This document shows, in pieces, positions 51 to 41,341 of a DNA stretch of 44,102 bases. This stretch comes from a virus. The translations under genes were made by a program, and so were the position numbers. Location of the stretch: the UHGV virus genome UHGV-0016039. One strand, 5' to 3'. Each line of letters starts with the position of its first letter. Position 1 is the stretch's first letter. The notes beneath the pieces were generated by a model. It had not been told where the DNA came from. It was given only the letters and a program-made list of their open reading frames with translations, and did no database searches.

Positions 51-246
51 TCACTCCGTCGACAGGATGCAGGACGCAAACTGGAGAGGGGCAACGCAGG
101 GGCCGGATCGAAGTGTAAGGATTCCCAACCGTGATTATATAACCAGGTCCACTACCCGAACGGGGGAACGCGTAACCTGGCAATATGTTAAGGCCACCGA
201 CGAAGTTAACTGCCGACACCTAAACTTAACCAATCGGAGATATACC

Positions 247-765
247 ATGTTTGAGCAAATCGTAAACCTGATCACTCGCGGCGTAGTAGCACTGGAAACC
301 ATCGCTAAACATTATGAAACCGTCGGCGCTGCCGTTGGTAAGCAGGAAGACAAGAAGCCGTCTAAGTCCAAAAAAGAAGTTGTCGAAGATGACGACGATG
401 ACGCCGAAGACGAAAAACCGGCTAAATCTAAAAAAGCGCCTGCGAAGGGCAAGGCTAAGAAGGAAGTCGTAGAAGATGACGACGATGAAGAAGCCGAAGA
501 CGAAAAACCGGCTAAGTCTAAAAAAGCCCCGGCTAAAGGCAAAGGCAAGAAAGATGCCGATCCGCTGGCGGAGATGCGCGACGAGATCAAACAGTATGCC
601 GCGATTATTGCCGGTGGTGACGACGACGATGCGAACGACGAATTCGACGACCTGCTGGAATCGTTCGAGATCAAATCAATCGCCAAGCTGGAAGATGACG
701 ACGTCGAAGACTTCCACAAAGAGCTAAAAGAAATCGTCGAAACCTATTTCGAACTGGAAGATTAA
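247..765 (+). CDS. acidic, lysine-rich repeat protein (D/E tracts alternating with PAKSKKAPAKGK repeats); candidate early protein
   Basis: ORF track 67..765; ATG at 247 preceded by GGAGA at 236-240 (6 nt spacing); ATG at 67 has no SD; terminator immediately downstream. Confidence 0.55.
   Translation: MFEQIVNLITRGVVALETIAKHYETVGAAVGKQEDKKPSKSKKEVVEDDDDDAEDEKPAKSKKAPAKGKAKKEVVEDDDDEEAEDEKPAKSKKAPAKGKGKKDADPLAEMRDEIKQYAAIIAGGDDDDANDEFDDLLESFEIKSIAKLEDDDVEDFHKELKEIVETYFELED
343..556 (+). repeat. in-frame tandem repeat (~87-90 bp unit, 2 full copies plus a partial) encoding EDDDD-AEDEKPAKSKKAPAKGK
   Basis: near-identical DNA units starting at ~386 and ~473. Confidence 0.7.
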
Positions 766-2912: not shown

Positions 2913-3002
2913 CCGCTTAGGCGCAACCAAGTAGATTAGCAACCAAGCCGAACGGGGTGGCTTCCAATAACCCCGATACATGTGAAAATGAGGAATTGGA
3001 AA

Positions 3003-3791
3003 ATGGCTAAAGTCAACCTGAAAAATGTGCGCGTATGTTTCCTGAAAATTTGGGAACGTGATACCCCTAAACAGGATGGACAAAAACCGGCATACCGCGC
3101 CGTGATTCTTCTTGATAAAGAAGACCCGCAGGTGGACAAAGTGGAGGCGGCAGCGCGCGCAGTGCTCACCGACAAGCTGAAATCCGAGAAGAATGCCGAT
3201 AAGTGGATGGACCGCCACTACGCCCAGGATTCTAAGGAATGTGCAGTTCGCGACGGCGACGAGCGCGATGAAGTAACCGAAGAGTTCGAAGGCATGTTGT
3301 ACATCAACGCCAAATCGTTCAAACAGCCTAACATCCAAACGTCACTGGGCGAGAAGCAGACCGAGCAAGGTCTGACCGTAGACGGCGACGAGATCGAAGG
3401 CCAGGAGATCTACTCCGGTTGTTATTGCAATGTGTCCCTGGATATTTGGGCGTGGAACAATACCAACGGCAAGGGGCTCGGGGCCGGCTTGCTGGGTCTG
3501 CGATTCCGTGAAGACGGCGAAGCCTTCGGGGGTGGCGGGTCTTCATGTTCTGACGAAGACCTGGACAACGATGACGAAGACGAAAGCCCGCGTAAGTCCA
3601 AAAAGTCAAAACGTCGTGATGACGATGACGAAGACGACAAGCCGCGTAAGTCCAAAAAATCCAAGCGCAGCGATGACGATGACGACGACGACGAAGACGA
3701 AAAGCCTCGCAAACGTCGTAAACCACGCGATGACGAAGATGAGGACGACGAAGACGAAGACGAAGCACCACGCAAACGTCGCCGCCGTTAA
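3003..3791 (+). CDS. DUF2815-type phage ssDNA-binding-like protein with C-terminal D/E-rich and PRKSKK repeat tail
   Basis: ATG 3003 preceded by GAGGAA; N-terminal MAKVNLKNVRV..F motif; gene order DUF2800-DUF2815-PolA. Confidence 0.7.
   Translation: MAKVNLKNVRVCFLKIWERDTPKQDGQKPAYRAVILLDKEDPQVDKVEAAARAVLTDKLKSEKNADKWMDRHYAQDSKECAVRDGDERDEVTEEFEGMLYINAKSFKQPNIQTSLGEKQTEQGLTVDGDEIEGQEIYSGCYCNVSLDIWAWNNTNGKGLGAGLLGLRFREDGEAFGGGGSSCSDEDLDNDDEDESPRKSKKSKRRDDDDEDDKPRKSKKSKRSDDDDDDDEDEKPRKRRKPRDDEDEDDEDEDEAPRKRRRR
3556..3788 (+). repeat. in-frame charged tandem repeats (DDDDEDD-KPRKSKKSKR units) at C-terminus of SSB-like protein
   Basis: repeated gacga(t/c)ga.. and ccgcgtaagtccaaaaa units visible in DNA. 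Confidence 0.65.
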
Positions 3792-3809
3792 GGGCAAAGC
3801 CCACTATTC

Positions 3810-3834
3810 AAGCCCGCTTAATGCGGGCTTTTTA
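3810..3834 (+). terminator. rho-independent terminator
   Basis: stem aagcccgc/gcgggctt followed by ttt. Confidence 0.65.
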
Positions 3835-3849
3835 ATAGGACAATGAAAA

Positions 3850-4020
3850 ATGCGTATTAAAGCCAGCGAAGTAAAAGTCGGAATGCAAGTATGGTCCAAA
3901 TTGCTGGGCGAGTATTTCACCGTTGCCGAGATTCGCAACAACGGCGAGGAGATCACCCTTTCCGACGGTATCTCCTCCATGATCGGCAGCGCTGACGCCG
4001 TAGTGAGGATAAAGCAATGA
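3850..4020 (+). CDS. small hypothetical protein (56 aa), stop overlaps PolA start (ATGA)
   Basis: ATG 3850 to TGA 4018-4020 read by hand; below the ORF-track length cutoff. Confidence 0.35.
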   Translation: MRIKASEVKVGMQVWSKLLGEYFTVAEIRNNGEEITLSDGISSMIGSADAVVRIKQ

Positions 4021-6308
4021 AAGACTTCGAACGCCTATTTCTCGACACAGAGACATTCAGCGATGTGGACCTGAAGAAAGTCGGCGCTTACGCCTACGCA
4101 GAACACCCGTCAACCGAGATTATGATTTGCACCTACGCCATCGACGAGGGCCGCGTGCAGACATGGGACGCCACTGAATCCCCCACGATGCCGCGTGAAC
4201 TACGCAAGGCGCTCCGCCATGTAACCCGCAAAAAAGCAAAAATAGTGATGGCGAACGGCCTCCTGTTTGACCGCCTGGTTATCCGTGAAAAGTGGGGCAT
4301 TGACCTGCCGGTAAGCCAGATCGAAGATACCATGATTATGGCCTTCCGACATGCGCTGCCGGGTGGCCTTGATATGCAATGCCAGGTGCTGGGCGTGGAC
4401 GCAGAGCACGCGAAGGATAAGGCGGGCAAGGCGCTGATTAAACGATTCTGTAAGCCTACCCCTAAGACCTACAAAATCCGCCGCTACACGCGCGAGACTC
4501 ACCCGGAAGAATGGGCTAAATTCCTGCGCTATGCCGCGCTGGATACTATCGCAATGCGTGAAGTCTACTGGCGCATACCGGACTGGGGCAACTCCCCGAA
4601 GGAAGACGAAATCCTGCTTATCGACCAGTTGATTAACGACCGCGGTTTCTATGTGGACGTTGACCTAGCTAACGCCGCGATCAAGGCGGTGCAGGTGCAT
4701 AAAGAAGAATTGAAGGAAGAAGCCTGGGAGCGTTTTGGCGGTAAGCTAACCGGCAACGACTTCCTGCCAATCCTGCGTGATATCGCCCCTGCGTTCACTA
4801 TTCACAACGCGCAGAAATCAACGCTGAATGACTTGCTGGAAGACCCAGACTTCCCCGACGAGGGCAAGGTGCTCATTGAGATGCGCCTCGGTGCGTCATC
4901 AACGGCATCGACTAAGTACAATCCGCTCGTCAATGGCCTGTCCGCCGATGGTCGCCGCCGTGGTTGTCTTCAGTATGGTGGGGCAAAGCGCACGCTACGC
5001 TGGGCCGGTAAAGGCTTTCAACCTCAAAACCTGGCGCGTGGCGAGTACAGCGACGACCACGAAGGGAAGATTAAACGCCGCGAGGGTGAAAGCGACGTCT
5101 CGTTTTGGGTCCGGTCGCACATGCTCACCAACGGCATCAACTCCCTGTTACGCGGGACCGCACACTGGGCGTATGACATATCGAAGCTAACGGCATCGAC
5201 CGTTCGCGGGTGCATTATTCCTGCGAAGGGTAAGAAGTTTGTCGTAGCGGACTACTCCAACGTGGAAGGGCGTGGCCTTGCCTGGATCGCTGGCGAGAAA
5301 ACAGCGCTCATGGTGTTTAAGGCCGGTCGCGATATCTATTGTGAGACTGCCGGTAAGATGTTCGGCCTGGACCCGGACTACATTAAAGCCAACCGCAAGG
5401 ACTTACGCCAGATCGGTAAGGCGTGCGAATTGGGACTGGGCTATGGTGGCGGCGTCGCGGCGTTCTTGCAGTTCGCTAAAAACCTGGGCCTCGACCTTTA
5501 CACTATGGCGGACGTGATGAAAGGCACGTTCCCGGATCACATTTGGGCGGCGGCGAAACGTGGTTATGAGTACGCTCGCATTAACGAAGCGAAGCGCCCG
5601 CCGAAGCCGGGCAAGAAGGACGAGCGCCCAACATACATACTGCCGAAAAACGTATGGCTTACTTGTGACGCAATCAAACGTATGTGGCGTGAGGCTCACC
5701 CGAAGACGGTAGCCTTTTGGGCCGAGCTTGAGGACGCTGTGTTGTGTGCAATCCGCAATCCGGGCAAAGCATACTGGGCTGGCGCGAACGTTCGCCCGGA
5801 CGGTAGAAAAGCGCTCAAGATTGTCCGTACGAAGGCGAAGCACGACCCAACCTTTGACGAGGAGCGCGACGACCCGAACGCCGCGGGGTGGTGGTTGAAA
5901 ATTGAGTTGCCGTCGGGGCGCATCATGAGCTACCCCGGCATCGCGCTGTCTGTCACGACCGAGATTGACGAAGACACCGGCAAGAAGCGCACCAGCACAC
6001 GCATTAAATATCAGGGCGAGAATCAGACGACGCGCCAGTGGGGATTCCAGTATACCTACGGCGGCAAACTGACGGAGAACATCGTACAGGCGTTGTGCCG
6101 CGATATTCTCGCATGGTCCATGCCTGGCGTTGAAGCTGCGGGGTATAAAATCGTCCTGTCGGTGCATGATGAATTGATCACAGAAGTGCCGGACACCGAC
6201 GACTACACTACCGAGGAACTTTGCGCGCTGATGTGCGACCTGCCTATTTGGGCGAAGGGCTTCCCACTTGCCGCCGAAGGCGACATCATGTACAGGTACA
6301 GGAAGTAA
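4017..6308 (+). CDS. DNA polymerase, family A, with 3'-5' exonuclease domain
   Basis: N-terminal LFLDTETFS exo motif; RQIGKACELGLGYGGG (motif B K...YG); VHDELITEV (motif C). Confidence 0.92.
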   Translation: MKDFERLFLDTETFSDVDLKKVGAYAYAEHPSTEIMICTYAIDEGRVQTWDATESPTMPRELRKALRHVTRKKAKIVMANGLLFDRLVIREKWGIDLPVSQIEDTMIMAFRHALPGGLDMQCQVLGVDAEHAKDKAGKALIKRFCKPTPKTYKIRRYTRETHPEEWAKFLRYAALDTIAMREVYWRIPDWGNSPKEDEILLIDQLINDRGFYVDVDLANAAIKAVQVHKEELKEEAWERFGGKLTGNDFLPILRDIAPAFTIHNAQKSTLNDLLEDPDFPDEGKVLIEMRLGASSTASTKYNPLVNGLSADGRRRGCLQYGGAKRTLRWAGKGFQPQNLARGEYSDDHEGKIKRREGESDVSFWVRSHMLTNGINSLLRGTAHWAYDISKLTASTVRGCIIPAKGKKFVVADYSNVEGRGLAWIAGEKTALMVFKAGRDIYCETAGKMFGLDPDYIKANRKDLRQIGKACELGLGYGGGVAAFLQFAKNLGLDLYTMADVMKGTFPDHIWAAAKRGYEYARINEAKRPPKPGKKDERPTYILPKNVWLTCDAIKRMWREAHPKTVAFWAELEDAVLCAIRNPGKAYWAGANVRPDGRKALKIVRTKAKHDPTFDEERDDPNAAGWWLKIELPSGRIMSYPGIALSVTTEIDEDTGKKRTSTRIKYQGENQTTRQWGFQYTYGGKLTENIVQALCRDILAWSMPGVEAAGYKIVLSVHDELITEVPDTDDYTTEELCALMCDLPIWAKGFPLAAEGDIMYRYRK

Positions 6309-9827: not shown

Positions 9828-10286
9828 GTGAAAATTTTACAAGAAGAGAAAAATTACGGGGCCGCGCAATGCCTCGAAGCCCGCGAACAGGCCGAACGCG
9901 CGAACGCGCTGGCGGACACCTACCTGGCGAGCTATGAAGGCGAGGAGAAGGCGCGCAAGGAATTAGAGGAGCGCTTCGATCTGCTGTATGAGTTGATGGG
10001 TATTATGCAGCGCACCGGATACACCACCACCGTCGCGCTAAACCGCATCACTGCCGAAGGTCTGCGCGAGCATTGCAAACGTGCCGAGGCGTACGTGCGC
10101 CCCAAAGGTCACCAGTCTAAGATCGACCGGAAAGACCTGGTGCTTATGGCGTGGCGCGCAAACGGTAGCTACTACTCCGATTGCCGACCGCTTAGCGTCG
10201 AGGGGGGAAAGCGCCTGCAACGCGTTCTAAACAGTGGTAAGAAAATTGCCCTGTACGCGATAGATCAAGACCATGCAGAAGAGTGA
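9828..10286 (+). CDS. hypothetical protein (152 aa), helical/coiled-coil N-terminus
   Basis: ORF track; GTG start directly after upstream stop. Confidence 0.4.
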   Translation: MKILQEEKNYGAAQCLEAREQAERANALADTYLASYEGEEKARKELEERFDLLYELMGIMQRTGYTTTVALNRITAEGLREHCKRAEAYVRPKGHQSKIDRKDLVLMAWRANGSYYSDCRPLSVEGGKRLQRVLNSGKKIALYAIDQDHAEE

Positions 10287-10758
10287 GCAGAAAGATAGCT
10301 GGCGCACACCGCCAGCTTTATTTAAACCGCTGCGCCGTAAGTTCCGATTCCGTTACGATATGGCGGCAAGCGACGCCAATCATCTGCTACCGCGTTACTT
10401 CACGGCAGAGCACAGCGCGCTTGATGTGGACTGGGCAGAGTTGAAAGGGTGGAAATGGTGCAATCCGCCGTATTCCGATCCGCTGCCGTGGGTGGAATGC
10501 GCAGCGCACGGACGGCGGACTGTCATGCTACTGAATCAGGACACGTCGACTAAGTGGGCGAAGTTGGCCCGGAAGACTGCAAACCTGATAATTCTTCTGG
10601 ACTGGCGGATTAGATTCATTCACGCCGTCACCGGCGAAGTCGGTCCGAGCAATAACAAGTGCCAGCAATTGATAATCTTTGACGAAGCGCCACCCCTCGG
10701 CAGCGCACAAATTGAAATAATGAGCGAAGGAGAACTCCTTGAATATCTTAATCGTTGA
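10273..10758 (+). CDS. dam: DNA N6-adenine methyltransferase (phage Dam-type)
   Basis: WRTPPALF N-terminus and NPPY catalytic motif (WCNPPYSDP). Confidence 0.8.
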   Translation: MQKSEQKDSWRTPPALFKPLRRKFRFRYDMAASDANHLLPRYFTAEHSALDVDWAELKGWKWCNPPYSDPLPWVECAAHGRRTVMLLNQDTSTKWAKLARKTANLIILLDWRIRFIHAVTGEVGPSNNKCQQLIIFDEAPPLGSAQIEIMSEGELLEYLNR

Positions 10759-10963
10759 CCGCGACCCTGCGGTCGTAGACCGAATGCAAAAAGACTACGG
10801 CATTGACCCGCGGCGCAATCATGTGGTGCGCGCATCTCATCCCGGACGCATCATGGGCCTTGACCTCAACGGTTGGCTTGTCATGACTCAGCGTTGCCAT
10901 TTCGTATGCAACTCCTTTACTGCGCGAAGCGCCCGACAGACACTTATTGAGAGCTTAAAATGA
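10739..10963 (+). CDS. hypothetical protein (74 aa)
   Basis: TTG start at 10739, 6 nt after AAGGAG; ATGA overlap with next gene. Confidence 0.4.
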   Translation: MNILIVDRDPAVVDRMQKDYGIDPRRNHVVRASHPGRIMGLDLNGWLVMTQRCHFVCNSFTARSARQTLIESLK

Positions 10964-24617: not shown

Positions 24618-24932
24618 AGTCTCAGACGAGGGGGGCCATTGACCCCCGTCTAGTCTGAAAGACTGGGGTGCTGTCCCGCTGTCCCGATCGGCTAAAAACC
24701 GCGGCAGCACTGGCGGGGACGGGGTGCTGTCCCGCTTTGTCCCGCCCCTTGTTTGTCCCGCTTTTTGTCCCGCTTACTTTATGCAATAAAACTGCATATA
24801 TATGCGTATTTATGGGGTGAGACAAAACGGGGCGTCCCGCCTGTCCCGTTTTGAGTTTATGCAATGAAAGTGATTAGATATGCGGTTTTACAGAGGCGGG
24901 ACAAAACGGGACGTCCCGCCTGTCCCGCTTCA
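24618..24932. repeat. composite repeat copy A: GC hairpin, GTCCCGC/GCGGGAC iterons, TTTATGCA-N-TGCAT palindromes, internal ~75 bp tandem duplication
   Basis: near-identical to 41078-41260; at least 8 GTCCCGC copies. Confidence 0.7.
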
Positions 24933-36311: not shown

Positions 36312-36428
36312 GATATAAGCCCTTTTATGCATATGCGCCGACCATCGGCAACATAGGAGACGGCCCAGCCATCTAAGGGGGATTATAACAGGCACAAAAA
36401 AGCCCACCAAATCGGCGGGCTGGGTGGG

Positions 36429-36641
36429 TTAAACGGCGCGACCGTAGTATCTGGTCAACATGCTTTCTACTTCGCTTATAGCGCCTTCTGTGTAGCGTAT
36501 TTGCGATAGTATCTCGATCCGCTCGCTAATAGACATGCCTATTGCCGCTGCCGTTCGCTCGAATCGGCGCAAGCCTTCAAGCTGTTTGCGTAGCTCTTTC
36601 AGGCGGGTGGCCTGCGTGCTCATGAATACTTGTCTGATCAT
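36429..36641 (-). CDS. hypothetical protein (70 aa)
   Basis: ATGA overlap with upstream phosphoesterase gene. Confidence 0.45.
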   Translation of the reverse strand: MIRQVFMSTQATRLKELRKQLEGLRRFERTAAAIGMSISERIEILSQIRYTEGAISEVESMLTRYYGRAV

Positions 36642-37780
36642 TTCAACATTTCCGGGCTAATGGTTAAGCGCGCTACTTCGCCGTAGTTGGCGCTATAGGT
36701 GATGACGTTTGCACTGCGACCGGACATCCAACCGCCACGGCTTGCATATGCATCTTTCGCGGCAAGCGTCCGGTGCTGTTCAACAATCATGTTGCGGGAT
36801 TCAACAATCTTCTGGTGGTGCAAGTGGCCTACGTGCGCGTAGCTGTACTCACTTGACCCGAAAGCCTGTCTGAATTTAGAAATCATGACAGGCTCGATGG
36901 CGTCAAATCGTGCTTTATGTCCGTGGTGGAAGAACAGCGTTGTTTTACCGTGCTGCACCATTTTGTAGACGTCCGGGGATGTGTCCACATCAACGCGCGG
37001 CTCGTTCTCGTACAGGGTATTGAACATCTCAGCCAGCCAAATCATACCGGACTCGTCATGATTACCCTGGACGATTAGTAGTTTGACCTTATGGTGTTTT
37101 TGCAGCGCCAGTTCAACCACGTTTCGCACCATGCGAATCATGTAGCGGACCAACTTCTGGTAGCGGGTATCGGCATCCAGTACGTGACCGCTGGCAGGGG
37201 TAACGGCATCGAGGCTGTCAAAGTGGGCCATATCACCGAGGATATTGATTACGGCAGTGCCCGCGTCCGGCGCGCGTGCGAAGGCTTCGACAAACCAGCG
37301 GTAGAACAGGTCTTCGGCGATTGCCATATCCCAGTCCTCGCCAGTCTCCTCGCCCCATGCCAACATGCCCAGGTGGAAGTCTGACACGGTGTACAGGTTG
37401 AGCAAATCAAGCGCCTGGATCGGTACTGGCGAGGCTTTTACTGGCGCTGCCGGTGTGATTTCGCTGTTCATACCCTCGACAACAGCGCGCATAGCTTCAA
37501 GCTGGCGCTCCTTGTCCTGCTCAGTGATGACCCAGGACATGACCTCTTCGCCATTGCCGCGCACCAGGGCCGATACGCGCTTAACCCCAAAGCCATCGGC
37601 AACTCGCTTGCGGATTACGGCATCGTTGCCGTGTCCAATGCCTTTTTTCGCCAGGCGGGCTTTCCGCATATAGACATTGCGTAGGGCAATCCCGTATTTC
37701 TTCGCAATATCTTTCGAGGTAGTGCCGGATTGTAATTCAGCAATCAATTGCTCGTCTGTGATTTTAGTTTGCGGGTGCAT
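36638..37780 (-). CDS. calcineurin-like metallophosphoesterase (SbcD/Mre11-like motifs) with N-terminal HTH
   Basis: VSDFHLG, GDMAHFD, GNHDE, HHGH motifs; N-terminal TTSKDIAKKYGIALRNVYMRKARL; ATG 37780 with AGGAAG. Confidence 0.7.
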   Translation of the reverse strand: MHPQTKITDEQLIAELQSGTTSKDIAKKYGIALRNVYMRKARLAKKGIGHGNDAVIRKRVADGFGVKRVSALVRGNGEEVMSWVITEQDKERQLEAMRAVVEGMNSEITPAAPVKASPVPIQALDLLNLYTVSDFHLGMLAWGEETGEDWDMAIAEDLFYRWFVEAFARAPDAGTAVINILGDMAHFDSLDAVTPASGHVLDADTRYQKLVRYMIRMVRNVVELALQKHHKVKLLIVQGNHDESGMIWLAEMFNTLYENEPRVDVDTSPDVYKMVQHGKTTLFFHHGHKARFDAIEPVMISKFRQAFGSSEYSYAHVGHLHHQKIVESRNMIVEQHRTLAAKDAYASRGGWMSGRSANVITYSANYGEVARLTISPEMLK

Positions 37781-37813
37781 ATTAATTAACTTCCTGGTTA
37801 TTGGTCCGAGGAC

Positions 37814-37837
37814 AATATACCACGGTCCCAAGTCAAG
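37814..37837 (-). promoter_or_regulatory. possible extended -10 promoter (TGgTATATT) for phosphoesterase gene
   Basis: rc of 37814-37822 is TGGTATATT; TTGACT-like -35 only 11 bp upstream. Confidence 0.3.
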
Positions 37838-37839
37838 AA

Positions 37840-37867
37840 ATAAAAAAGCCCGGAATTAACCGGGCTT
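37840..37867 (-). terminator. rho-independent terminator ending lysis-region transcript
   Basis: agcccgg-aattaa-ccgggct followed by tttttt on - strand. Confidence 0.55.
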
Positions 37868-37873
37868 GTTAGT

Positions 37874-38035
37874 TTACTCTTCTGGCTCTGCAGGCGGTGG
37901 CGGACTCGGCAGCTTCGCGTCAAAGACGCCTGCATGGCTGATAGTGTCCGCGATGATAGCGCGTGCGCCAGGGTCTTCGGTTTTAGCCAGCGCGGCGAGC
38001 GCGTCAGCGTTATGATCAAGAATGCTTTTTAACAT
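37874..38035 (-). CDS. small hypothetical protein (53 aa, Pro-rich C-terminus)
   Basis: ATG 38035 preceded by GAGGT; read by hand, below ORF-track cutoff. Confidence 0.35.
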   Translation of the reverse strand: MLKSILDHNADALAALAKTEDPGARAIIADTISHAGVFDAKLPSPPPPAEPEE

Positions 38036-38051
38036 ACTGTGTTACCTCGTA

Positions 38052-38543
38052 TTATGCTGCGTTACGCCCGATTCGCTCGGCAACGTCCCACTGCTTACCA
38101 TCAAACAACGCCTGTCTGCCGATTGCACGGCGTACAAGACCCTTCAGCACTTCCCCGCCTTGCTTGCGGAACTGCGGCAGAGTAGTACGGACCTTCGCCC
38201 AGTCTCCCAGTCGCACCGCGTCATCGAAATCATTCGCGACGTCATCCGGTACGATCGGGCCAGGACCGGCATTGATTACCAGGTCCACCAGCGCATCGAA
38301 TTGCGCCTGATTGATACTAGGGTGTGCGTACTTGTTCACCCAGTTCTCGGCATATGCCACATCTCGCTTGAGCAGTTCCAGCGCTTCCGCGCGGGTAATG
38401 CTCCGCGGCGGGTTCGTGCCTGTATGCCCATAGCCCCAGGTGTACAGGCCGCGGGCCTGCTCTTTCTTAGTCGCGAAATACGGCACTGGGCTGAATTGCT
38501 CCCATGCTGCCGTAAATCTTAGACCGTTGTCACTGAATCGCAT
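38052..38543 (-). CDS. endolysin, GH24 lysozyme-like
   Basis: N-terminal SDNGL..E.F...PY....GLYTWGYGHTG pattern typical of P22/T4-type lysozymes. Confidence 0.78.
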   Translation of the reverse strand: MRFSDNGLRFTAAWEQFSPVPYFATKKEQARGLYTWGYGHTGTNPPRSITRAEALELLKRDVAYAENWVNKYAHPSINQAQFDALVDLVINAGPGPIVPDDVANDFDDAVRLGDWAKVRTTLPQFRKQGGEVLKGLVRRAIGRQALFDGKQWDVAERIGRNAA

Positions 38544-38775
38544 GTTTTACCCCATTCAAAACAGCATTACGCAGCGTGCGCAATGCAAACAGCCAGATTA
38601 ACGCGGTCCAGGTGGCGTCAGATACGTCTCCCGTTTGCAACAGACCGACAATACAGGTCATTGCCGTTAGCAGATATAACACCCGACCGAAGAAGCCATC
38701 CTGGACGGACGGCGCATACACGTTAAACAGGGACGACGCCCCGATAATCACAAACAACAGGACGGTGATAATCAT
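38530..38775 (-). CDS. small membrane protein (holin/antiholin-like, ~3 TM)
   Basis: hydrophobic segments; ATGA overlap with upstream holin. Confidence 0.5.
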   Translation of the reverse strand: MIITVLLFVIIGASSLFNVYAPSVQDGFFGRVLYLLTAMTCIVGLLQTGDVSDATWTALIWLFALRTLRNAVLNGVKHAIQ

Positions 38776-39062
38776 TTTGCGCCCCCCGGAAGGTGTAGCG
38801 TCGCAATTGTCTCCCGGATCCGGTCAGCGATTGGCATCCAGAAGATGGCAGTTACGAAGCCCAAACCGGCAACAGTGCGCTCACCAGACAAACCAGACCA
38901 CTCGGCAATAGCTGGTGCCCCAAATATGGCACACAGGAAGCCAACAACGACATATAAAACGAAGTTCAACGGCCCTTTCGTTGCCTCGCCATGAATGCGT
39001 GCGCCTACGAATCCACCAGCAAGACACGCAAGGGCGAATAACCACTCGTTAAGCTTATCCAT
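38772..39062 (-). CDS. putative holin (3 TM segments)
   Basis: 96 aa with three hydrophobic helices; immediately upstream of endolysin cassette. Confidence 0.6.
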   Translation of the reverse strand: MDKLNEWLFALACLAGGFVGARIHGEATKGPLNFVLYVVVGFLCAIFGAPAIAEWSGLSGERTVAGLGFVTAIFWMPIADRIRETIATLHLPGGAK

Positions 39063-39096
39063 AAAAAAGTCCCAGTAAGTTTTATCTCACTGGGAC
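39063..39096 (-). terminator. hairpin plus T6 directly 5' of holin start codon
   Basis: perfect 9-bp stem agtcccagt/actgggact; T-run on - strand abuts ATG 39062. Confidence 0.5.
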
Positions 39097-39114
39097 TATA
39101 TCACGCTTGCATAA

Positions 39115-39402
39115 TTAATCGAAAATGGACCACTTGCCGACGCCTTTCCACTCCCACCCGGATGATCGGACGGCTTCGAATGTTCGCCCGCCTATCATAT
39201 CCCGATACCACAGCCACCACATGCGCAACCTGGTCGGGTGCTCCGCGATTCCACGGCGCTTGTATATCTCGAACGTCATGCGGGTAATGCTGGCGGCTTC
39301 CACCGCGGGCCAAATCAGGAAGACCCACACCAACAGCGCCAGCACCGCAACAAAGAGTGACGCGCACCCCAATCCAAACCAATAAATCACATCGTGTAAC
39401 AT
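39115..39402 (-). CDS. membrane protein (95 aa)
   Basis: ATG 39402 preceded by AGAGGGGG; hydrophobic N-terminus. Confidence 0.5.
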   Translation of the reverse strand: MLHDVIYWFGLGCASLFVAVLALLVWVFLIWPAVEAASITRMTFEIYKRRGIAEHPTRLRMWWLWYRDMIGGRTFEAVRSSGWEWKGVGKWSIFD

Positions 39403-39527
39403 CGAATTGCCCCCTCTGGTTTGCCGATATGGCGCGCCCATGCACGCGCCACGAAGTAATTGCGGAACACTCGCCCGCCTATCTCAAAGCGGTTATGCAC
39501 CAACAAATCACGGATAGTTGCGCTCAT
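39387..39527 (-). CDS. small hypothetical protein (46 aa)
   Basis: ATGA overlap with upstream gene stop; read by hand. Confidence 0.3.
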   Translation of the reverse strand: MSATIRDLLVHNRFEIGGRVFRNYFVARAWARHIGKPEGAIRCYTM

Positions 39528-40141
39528 TTCAGTATTACCGATTGCGGGTCGATGGCTGTCATGCTGCCGTCACGTTCGACACGGATGAATCCAACGCCAT
39601 ATTCCTGCGCGTGGCGCTGTGCATTCGTCACGGCATCAAAGCGATTGACTATCTCTCGCGTGGCCTGGCGGATCGGCTCCATCACTTTGCTCGCGTCGTA
39701 GGAGGCATACGCGGGCTGCGACTTGCGGAACTCGACGCGCGTCTTCTGTGCAACCTCACGCGTTACGCGGTTAACGGCGTCCACTATGGCGTTCGCTTGC
39801 TCATGCGGCCGGCGATCACGGAGGCTGTATTTGCGCCCCACGCGCTCGTAGTGGATTAGCCCGAAGTACGACATACCCGCTACGCCATCCTTGCGGTTCT
39901 GCATACGCAGGCCATGAAGCCCGACATACTCGACGACCCACATACTACCGTCGCGAATATCACGCAGCACATCGCCGCGCTCAATATCGTGTGTGAGAAT
40001 ATCGCAGTCTTCATGCAGCTTGTCTTTCTTCGCCCACCACACCCGATTTCCTGCCGCGTTTTGCAAGCGTACGTGTGAATCCAGGGTCTGTATCGGCTTC
40101 AGGATGCGCCCGTCCGATTTGCGGCGGAATAGTAATTTCAT
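39524..40141 (-). CDS. hypothetical protein (205 aa)
   Basis: ATG 40141 preceded by GAGGAG. Confidence 0.6.
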   Translation of the reverse strand: MKLLFRRKSDGRILKPIQTLDSHVRLQNAAGNRVWWAKKDKLHEDCDILTHDIERGDVLRDIRDGSMWVVEYVGLHGLRMQNRKDGVAGMSYFGLIHYERVGRKYSLRDRRPHEQANAIVDAVNRVTREVAQKTRVEFRKSQPAYASYDASKVMEPIRQATREIVNRFDAVTNAQRHAQEYGVGFIRVERDGSMTAIDPQSVILK

Positions 40142-40281
40142 TGCTCAGTCTCCTCAATCTCATCGGCAGTTTTCGTGTCGGCATCGCATACCGTAGCGAT
40201 GCCGTCAATCTCATAATCTGCTAAGCAGGCATCAACAGAAATAAACTTCTGCGAGAATCCTGCCATTAGTGCTGGTGTCAT
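40138..40281 (-). CDS. small acidic hypothetical protein (47 aa)
   Basis: ATGA overlaps at both ends; GGAG upstream. Confidence 0.4.
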   Translation of the reverse strand: MTPALMAGFSQKFISVDACLADYEIDGIATVCDADTKTADEIEETEQ

Positions 40282-40547
40282 TTGCTCAGTCTCCAGTGTT
40301 TGCCTACCCGCTCAACGGCGGGCTTCCGGCGTAATGTAATACGTATTCCCATTGGTTGCAAGGAAGTCCGCACCCTGAAATCGTGTTGTGCTGCGAACTG
40401 GTGCAAGTAGCGAGTCTGCGTCAGTGGCTTTACATCATCGCGATAGCTCCAGTACACAGAATCGCCTTCAGTCGCATTCTTAGCCCATATTCGTATGCAG
40501 TGAAGGGGAATACGCCATGAAAGCTGTTTAGCGCGCCTACGGCTCAT
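40278..40547 (-). CDS. hypothetical basic protein (89 aa)
   Basis: ORF track; ATG 40547 with AAGGG. Confidence 0.5.
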   Translation of the reverse strand: MSRRRAKQLSWRIPLHCIRIWAKNATEGDSVYWSYRDDVKPLTQTRYLHQFAAQHDFRVRTSLQPMGIRITLRRKPAVERVGKHWRLSK

Positions 40548-40861: not shown

Positions 40862-40889
40862 CGTTCAGTCCTCATATTGGTGTGCAACC

Positions 40890-40918
40890 AATATAGCCAG
40901 GTGCCAGGCTGAATGCAA
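40890..40918 (-). promoter_or_regulatory. sigma70-like promoter TTGCAT-17bp-TATATT (- strand) with overlapping palindrome ATTGGT-gtgc-AACCAAT
   Basis: rc of 40913-40918 is TTGCAT, rc of 40890-40895 is TATATT; palindrome 40875-40894. Confidence 0.5.
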
Positions 40919-41077
40919 CCAATATTAATCACGCGTATGAAAAAGTTGATCGCTATCTGCTGAATCTGCAAACCGCATTTTTCACTTTCCATTCTGCAAC
41001 TCGCATTGGTTGCCGAGTTCATCGACGACCGCAATTTGCATCATGTTGCCGTGCGGTATGCAATCCTGGATTTTATG

Positions 41078-41260
41078 CAGTCTCAGACGAGGGGGGTGCC
41101 AGACCCCCCGTCTAGTCTGAAAGACTGGGGTGCCGTCCCGCTGTCCCGCTCCTCTGGAAGCCGCGTCATCCGGGGCGGGACGGGGGTGCTGTCCCGCTTT
41201 GTCCCGCCTCTGGTCTGTCCCGCCTTTTGTCCCGCTTGTTTTATGCAGTAAAATTGCATA
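41078..41260. repeat. composite repeat copy B (hairpin, GTCCCGC iterons, ATGCA-N7-TGCAT palindrome)
   Basis: near-identical to 24618-24800 except for a 35-bp substituted core. Confidence 0.7.
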
Positions 41261-41341
41261 ACTATTCACTATATCCACACTACACGGCAACCAATGCGAC
41301 CGACTAAAAGCACTCAAAATGGCAACCAATGCGCGCAGAAT

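Follow-up and report, generated by a model that had tools for sequence, protein, structure and literature searches.

The 44,102-nucleotide (nt) virus genome stretch UHGV-0016039, hereafter the window, contains four small open reading frames (ORFs) of 46–56 amino acids (aa), named here A, B, C and D, which are very probably genuine protein-coding genes and, judging from their sequence and arrangement, are most likely translated within polycistronic units. An earlier note had listed four ORFs of this size without stating their strand; all of them are present exactly at the coordinates below, and B, C and D lie on the minus strand.

3850-4020, plus strand: ORF A, 56 aa, neutral, predicted all-beta, between the SSB-like and DNA polymerase genes.
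37874-38035, minus strand: ORF B, 53 aa, acidic, final cistron of the holin-holin-endolysin unit.
39387-39527, minus strand: ORF C, 46 aa, basic, isoelectric point (pI) 10.8.
40138-40281, minus strand: ORF D, 47 aa, very acidic (charge -9.5), an accessory cassette.

The 3.2-kilobase (kb) stretch around this finding matches 157 phage records at 80-95% DNA identity, nearly all of them from phages of Escherichia, Shigella or Sodalis that belong to the genus Dhillonvirus; the closest DNA match is EK99P-1 (89.6%), with which the window shares roughly 88-90% DNA identity. Because the related records come almost entirely from that genus, the window is, as judged by these DNA matches, the genome of a Dhillonvirus-type siphophage, a phage of Escherichia coli. 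Searches with tblastn matched 155 phage records for A, 147 for B, 152 for C and 105 for D, again nearly all Dhillonvirus, and among the matches listed the hit falls under an annotated 'hypothetical protein' in most records. The four peptides and their neighbours were also scanned against the protein families of PHROG, Pfam, NCBIfam and PADLOC, the last of which covers defence systems. Each of the four ORFs has its own PHROG family, matched from the first residue to the last: phrog_10102 for A (E 4e-41), phrog_11068 for B (E 8e-38), phrog_13628 for C (E 2e-36) and phrog_15977 for D (E 7e-31). All four families are labelled 'unknown function'. With A, B and C as queries, a word-indexed search of 5.8 billion proteins retrieved nothing beyond close relatives.

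Our codon analyses revealed that these frames evolve as coding sequences. Using homologues from 39 related loci (11-17 distinct relatives per ORF), the pooled Nei-Gojobori ratio of nonsynonymous to synonymous substitution (dN/dS) in the proposed frame was 0.07 for A, 0.30 for B, 0.11 for C and 0.26 for D, with zero internal stops, while the two shifted sense frames gave ratios of 1.1-3.5 and many stops. The antisense frame that shares the wobble positions also showed a low ratio, as expected, and is interrupted by stops for B, C and D. Conservation of the reading frames in related phages had been named by the earlier note as one test of its claim. It was found, with frames that are intact and under purifying selection in homologues from 105-155 records each, and since the frames are conserved we regard the four ORFs as genes.

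The earlier note had also described an ATGA or TAATG overlap, or a sequence resembling a Shine-Dalgarno (SD) site, at each ORF. An ATGA overlap is indeed present at A, C and D and an SD sequence at B; TAATG occurs at none of the four. The arrangement of A, C and D with their neighbours is as would be expected for translational coupling. Across the six frames of the window there are 65 ATG-started ORFs of 40-59 aa, and because 29 of these 65 carry an ATGA/TAATG-type motif at one end, such a motif alone is not discriminating. The four ORFs fill same-strand gaps between long genes, and it is this position, together with the full-length PHROG matches, the occurrence in 105-155 genomes and the dN/dS values, that places them above chance.

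The idea that genes of this size had been overlooked did not hold, given that relatives annotate them as 'hypothetical protein' and a PHROG family exists for each. Annotated genes lie at the corresponding positions in EK99P-1, bob, EE09 and SM_S22, and the counterparts include gp40, gp45 and gp47 of phage bob and CDS40, CDS45 and CDS47 of EE09. These hypothetical genes of bob and EE09 have the same neighbours and the same start/stop overlaps as the window ORFs, and the window alleles are 85-100% identical to them, with no substantive difference, the window B being a short form. The observation is therefore correct and ordinary: the four ORFs are routinely annotated hypothetical proteins of a well-sampled genus and were already known. 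As stated, the finding adds little to GenBank annotations and PHROGs that already hold these genes. It does indicate that a cutoff of 60 aa is too high for phage genomes, and it provides four handles on proteins that are conserved across ~150 therapeutic-candidate coliphages.

ORF B, which is near-universal in the genus, starts 17 nt past the endolysin stop codon, without overlap, and is preceded by GAGG at a distance of 9 nt. A Pro/Glu-rich tail follows the conserved residues 1-42; over these residues the identity is at least 95% in 136 of the 147 records, though the DNA is just ~86-90% identical. A long form of 133-137 codons occurs in ~44 records (~30%), in which the same N-terminal module is followed by a Pro-rich linker and an Ig-like domain of the Big_2 family (PF02368; E 5e-10 to 5e-12). 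In the window, ORF B ends after the Pro/Glu tail, and Big_2 is absent from it, with no Pfam match and with the absence confirmed by alignment. At the DNA level, short and long forms are separated by a clean domain-sized indel between conserved flanks, and the tails of the short forms are variable Pro/Glu-rich stubs. Given that the short forms alone have a dN/dS of 0.023 over codons 1-42, at a synonymous difference (pS) of 0.35, the short form is functional rather than a decaying remnant.

We propose that B is a late protein whose 42-residue N-terminal module would be the functional part, acting as an interaction or anchor module. This module would carry a Big_2 domain on a Pro-rich linker in the ~30% of relatives with the long form, and the window would possess the 'bald' form. 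Decoration proteins such as T5 pb10 and T4 Hoc combine an anchor module with an Ig-like domain. Outside the genus, the most closely related Big_2 domains belong to Drexlerviridae proteins whose genes lie between those of the head protease and the major head protein. Long-form B resembles pb10, Hoc and these Drexlerviridae proteins in joining a short N-terminal module, a Pro-rich linker and one Big_2 domain, and its product is, like a decoration protein, abundant late in infection. Unlike the decoration proteins, the B gene is situated in the lysis cassette and not in the head module, the window form has no Ig domain, the N-terminal module does not detectably resemble known anchors, and B is known here from genes and from proteomics of lysate and cells. 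The proteomics concern EE09, whose CDS40 is a long form with its first 46 residues identical to those of window B. CDS40 was identified by mass spectrometry in the lysate with 3 peptides (28% coverage), and infected cells sampled at 25 min yielded just 4 phage proteins, CDS40 among them (PMC10673088).

Another possibility, which we hold to be rather unlikely and which is the main rival for B, would be that the protein belongs to the lysis machinery instead of the virion, as an endolysin modulator or a substitute for a spanin. As the final cistron of a holin-holin-endolysin unit between two terminators, B occupies the position that the u-spanin has in T1-like phages, in which the lysis module likewise lies next to a gene for a DNA-repair exonuclease (PMC13164509). 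In the relatives inspected, no spanin is annotated in this region, and the EE09 protein was detected along with the lysin. However, B contains no hydrophobic segment, signal peptide or lipobox and is acidic (charge -5.3, grand average of hydropathy (GRAVY) -0.15), and among the tblastn matches listed the Big_2 domain of the long forms is also found in genes of other phages for head-module, 'structural', 'surface' and 'Ig-like' proteins. Because it lacks a hydrophobic segment and Cys and is acidic, B is neither a spanin nor a cationic lysis peptide. An i-, o- or u-spanin is ruled out by the missing hydrophobic stretch and by the absence of Cys, and hence of a lipobox, and a cationic membrane-disrupting peptide of the disruptin type is ruled out by the negative charge. 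The preferred reading remains a late protein built on an interaction or anchor module, and this 42-residue module may help explain particle decoration, or lysis in phages with no annotated spanin.

ORF D differs from the other ORFs in being accessory. It is found in 105 of the ~157 records, at 55-96% identity, and is missing from about one third of the relatives. Its N-terminus is variable and its C-terminus conserved (GIATVCDGD..DEIEETEQ). Both ends of the gene overlap its neighbours at an ATGA, GGAG lies 9 nt upstream, and the gene is flanked by an exact 13-nt direct repeat, for which 0.02 matches would be expected by chance:

40282-40294, minus strand: upstream junction repeat GGAGACTGAGCAA, SD and spacer, just before the ATGA that starts D.
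40141-40153, minus strand: downstream junction repeat GGAGACTGAGCAA, which ends D as EETEQ and provides the SD for the 205-aa ORF.

The junction at the D slot is thus a duplicated GGAGACTGAGCAA(A)TGA, which contains an SD, a spacer and a start/stop overlap; on the minus strand, 40138-40295 has no promoter-like or terminator-like site. In EP23 and SO-1 the slot is empty, and the 89-aa and 205-aa genes are coupled to each other directly through a single junction. YD-2008.s has in the slot an unrelated basic ORF of 50 aa bounded by the same junction (25 records), EK99P-1 has a 63-aa ORF in addition to D (3 records), and in other phages (7 records, full-length matches) the slot holds a 114-aa ORF paralogous to the N-terminal part of the 205-aa protein. 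These 50-, 63- and 114-aa cassettes are unrelated, and copies of the same junction bound all of them. In LF50P3 two cassettes stand in tandem, with three junction copies ~150 nt apart. Where an alignment is confined to the upstream half, it nearly always stops at the junction (60 rows sampled of the 134 matching records). The 114-aa slot ORF (locus L013, 1268-1609; present, for example, in vB_EcoS_WF5505) shares GDVLRD..LWV and Y.RVGRK with the 205-aa protein and looks, from its sequence, like a partial tandem duplication of the 205-aa gene.

We propose that ORF D is an exchangeable accessory cassette, with its SD-spacer-ATGA junction duplicated on both sides, and that recombination at this junction probably inserts, deletes or stacks small genes, each of which would stay translationally coupled. 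A host or defence protein is a possible target of D. The closest precedent is the promoter plus stem-loop (PeSL) mobile regulatory cassettes of T4-type phages (Arbiol et al. 2010, PMC2839356). In both systems a short, conserved expression signal is repeated around variable small ORFs, and the presence, absence and swapping of these ORFs map to the repeats, as we found at the D slot. The D repeat differs in that it is a 16-17-nt translational-coupling junction inside an operon and not an early promoter with a stem-loop. It differs further in that its downstream copy also encodes protein (EETEQ in D, RRLSK in the 50-aa cassette), and in that the exchange is deduced from sequence comparison. A more ambitious joint reading, to which we give little credence as a whole, would make the slot an integrase-free, integron-like array, in which the 16-17-nt junction is the recombination site for unrelated mini-genes of 47-114 aa, each new cassette is automatically coupled, and the cassettes, D included, are strain-specific inhibitors of host or defence proteins. 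The D slot is a testable example of how accessory mini-genes may be swapped without disturbing the expression of an operon.

A separate observation concerns slur05, in which the D homologue (locus L007, 3174-3428) is fused to 112 nt copied from the 3' end of the DNA polymerase gene (88% identity); the resulting chimera has 84 aa and ends in the C-terminal residues of the polymerase. The homology between D and the DNA polymerase C-terminus to which this fusion pointed was considered and rejected (BLASTP E 7), the slur05 fusion being a separate 112-nt duplication.

The earlier note had placed the four peptides in the size class of host-takeover and anti-defence peptides; no link supporting this idea emerged, and Pfam, NCBIfam and PADLOC gave no matches. 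That these peptides are effectors inhibiting host or immune proteins is, in our judgement, unlikely. Typical accessory anti-defence genes are not at once near-universal and strongly constrained. A, B and C are both, and they are located in the replication and lysis modules, which argues against such a role. ORF D is accessory and very acidic, has a variable N-terminus, and lies in a hot-spot of swapped and stacked small genes, so the effector profile fits D alone, circumstantially, and is unsupported for A, B and C. Two small Dhillonvirus proteins that do interact with defence lend the idea some weight: Ksap1 (74 aa) of SECphi18 triggers KpAvs2 (PMC11564622), and anti-Tmn (154 aa, ORF35 of SM_S22) blocks Tmn (PMC11846954). 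They resemble our four ORFs in being lineage-restricted, in belonging to the same genus and in having no detectable homologues of known function. They differ in residing at other loci, in being larger and in that experimental phenotypes exist on their side only. In the window they correspond to different genes (10739-10963 and 9828-10286), and no sequence homology of A, B, C or D to Ksap1 or anti-Tmn was found. Nor did any homology to a known inhibitor appear in Pfam, NCBIfam or PADLOC, which lists defence systems. In passages on SECphi18 from two escape-mutant studies and from the work on KpAvs2, the only proteins named are SSB, DNA polymerase, portal and Ksap1; with passages from Dhillonvirus defence papers included, the list consists of SSB, polymerase, portal, Ksap1, nmad5 and anti-Tmn, and contains none of A-D.

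The two homologues deserve a brief description of their own. The Ksap1 homologue (10739-10963, plus strand) has 74 aa, a TTG start in the ORF list and 80% identity to SECphi18 gp51. It keeps L47, T50 and F60, and has V at position 30 and M at position 39, and so carries two of three substitutions (K30V, L39M and F60V) whose combination is reported to abolish KpAvs2 activation (PMC11564622). The anti-Tmn homologue (9828-10286, plus strand) has 152 aa and is 82% identical to SM_S22 CDS0035, the latter gene being mis-annotated as 'DNA ligase' in several records. Small sequence differences are reported to decide the activity of anti-Tmn homologues (PMC11846954).

The ATGA in which ORF C begins also contains the stop codon of the 205-aa ORF, and there is no clear SD. 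At its other end, ORF C shares its final 16 nt with the beginning of the gene for the 95-aa membrane protein, whose ATG (at 39402) lies 16 nt inside ORF C and whose SD, GAGGGGG, also lies within it. The protein is nearly invariant, near-universal in the genus and confined to the lineage. An exhaustive profile search over 1.84 billion representatives retrieved five true clusters, two of them partial, besides three long multi-stretch proteins that we take to be spurious. AlphaFold2 predicted an alpha-beta-beta-alpha-beta mini-domain (pLDDT 83). No Pfam family was matched at E up to 0.1 and no Protein Data Bank (PDB) sequence at E up to 10. We regard C as a basic mini-protein with a beta-beta-alpha core, for which nucleic-acid binding would be the most plausible activity and is a reasonable guess.

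A more specific version of this idea would make C a minimal HNH-type (beta-beta-alpha-metal) nuclease or a zinc-finger-like DNA binder, which we find quite unlikely. An HNH-like H-GG-N-H-K spacing is present in the sequence; profile and fold searches gave it no support. An HNH endonuclease is unsupported by any Pfam, PDB-sequence or fold match, and a C2H2 zinc finger was rejected, as C contains a single Cys (C43) in addition to H11 and H33, and the hairpin has no Cys pair. Nucleic-acid binding by a basic mini-protein is therefore the level at which we leave the assignment. Separately, an exact 13-nt repeat, GATAGGCGGGCGA, on the minus strand at 39184-39196 and 39471-39483 specifies the motif IGGR in the 95-aa membrane protein as well as in ORF C. 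The paralogy that repeat and motif suggested between C and the C-terminal part of the 95-aa protein was rejected (BLASTP E 0.05, hhalign probability 1.4%).

ORF A is preceded by a terminator-like hairpin that follows the SSB-like gene and, at a distance of 8 nt, by AGGA; it ends at the polymerase gene, the ATG of which is overlapped by the TGA of A (ATGA). It is near-universal in the genus, and among the matches listed it lies directly upstream of the polymerase in nearly all records, with the matching stretch itself reaching into the polymerase gene. AlphaFold2 gave a poor all-beta model (pLDDT 58), and in a comparison with PDB sequences the one similarity, a weak one to the beta-barrel at the N-terminus of ATP synthase alpha, was not significant (E 0.04). 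Termination-reinitiation at the ATGA probably links the synthesis of A to that of the DNA polymerase. Judging from its position and coupling, A most likely has a role in the replication module, possibly as a small, beta-rich protein that partners the polymerase or DNA. Opposite A, an antisense ORF of 58 aa (3804-3980, minus strand) is open in all 15 relatives. Since it shares its wobble positions with A, runs against the flanking orientation and has a dN/dS of 0.24 compared with 0.07 for the sense frame, it is probably a by-product of the conservation of A.

Several points weigh against our account of the four genes and their roles. Translational coupling is read from the gene arrangement. Mass-spectrometry support is confined to the long-form homologue of B, and the peptides identifying CDS40 may come from its Big_2 part; the EE09 proteomics list contains no homologues of A, C or D, and the EE09 lysate also held the endolysin and the phosphoesterase (PMC10673088), because of which the detection of CDS40 is not proof that B is in the virion. 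No functional homology of the four peptides was found in Pfam, NCBIfam or PADLOC, the fold searches with C gave no significant match, and the model of A is, at its low pLDDT, unreliable. At the D slot, the downstream junction copy drifts at wobble positions in relatives, and the junction would for that reason be shared ancestral or recombined sequence and not a strictly maintained site. Nevertheless, that the four are untranslated chance frames in intergenic or overlapping sequence is scarcely credible: small ORFs are common (the 65 in the window, 29 of them with a motif at one end) and even the antisense ORF opposite A is open in 15 of 15 relatives at a ratio of 0.24, but the proposed frames are intact in 11-17 relatives with dN/dS of 0.07-0.30 versus more than 1 in the shifted frames, all four have full-length PHROG matches, and a homologue of B has been seen by mass spectrometry.

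The genes and signals around the four ORFs are as follows:

4017-6308, plus strand: family A DNA polymerase gene, the downstream partner of A, DNA polymerase I in relatives.
37846-37867, minus strand: terminator-like hairpin and T run directly 3' of B, closing the lysis unit and conserved in relatives.
38052-38543, minus strand: endolysin gene, just upstream of B, annotated as endolysin, lysozyme or lysin in relatives.
38530-39062, minus strand: two holin-like genes (38772-39062 and 38530-38775) with a start/stop overlap, holins in relatives.
39068-39097, minus strand: hairpin with a 12-base-pair stem and a T run, abutting the holin start and separating the D/C operon from the lysis unit.
39115-39402, minus strand: gene for the 95-aa protein, which has an N-terminal hydrophobic, membrane-spanning-like stretch; phrog_2531, a 288-nt gene in relatives.
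39524-40141, minus strand: 205-aa ORF, phrog_10243, coupled upstream to D and downstream to C.
40278-40547, minus strand: 89-aa ORF, phrog_12533, upstream of the D slot and joined directly to the 205-aa ORF when the slot is empty.

The unit containing D and C runs in the order helicase-primase, 101-aa, 89-aa, D, 205-aa, C and 95-aa genes, and the lysis unit comprises four genes, namely holin, holin, endolysin and B. Terminator-like hairpins on the minus strand are found at 39068-39097, 37846-37867 and 36401-36421. The first of these ends 5 nt before the ATG of the first holin gene at 39062, and a read-through transcript would place it at the holin ribosome-binding region; it could be a control point for the expression of the lysis genes.

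Downstream of B, the phosphoesterase/DNA-repair exonuclease ORF (36638-37831, minus strand) was assigned a TTG start mechanically, giving 397 aa. In relatives the annotated length is 380 aa (1143 nt), which makes an ATG near 37780 the probable true start. Just upstream, right after the B terminator, TTGACT followed by TGGTATATT resembles an extended -10 promoter. Near A, acidic/basic coding repeats (DDEDE..KPRK/SKK) are shared by the C-terminal tail of the SSB-like protein (gene at 2982-3791) and by the first ORF of the window (67-765), at 3554-3790 and 374-553 on the plus strand, respectively.

Finally, the non-coding stretches 40862-41341 and 24660-24930 share repeats. The 16-nt GGGGTGCTGTCCCGCT occurs as two pairs, each with a spacing of 56 nt (24665/24721 and 41127/41183), and there are further repeats of 36 nt (24816/24895), 31 nt (41268/41303) and 12 nt (40883/40914). 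These shared repeats could be regulatory or origin-like sites. In phage bob, a 'repeat_region' is annotated at the start of the helicase-primase gene, in the comparable part of the genome.

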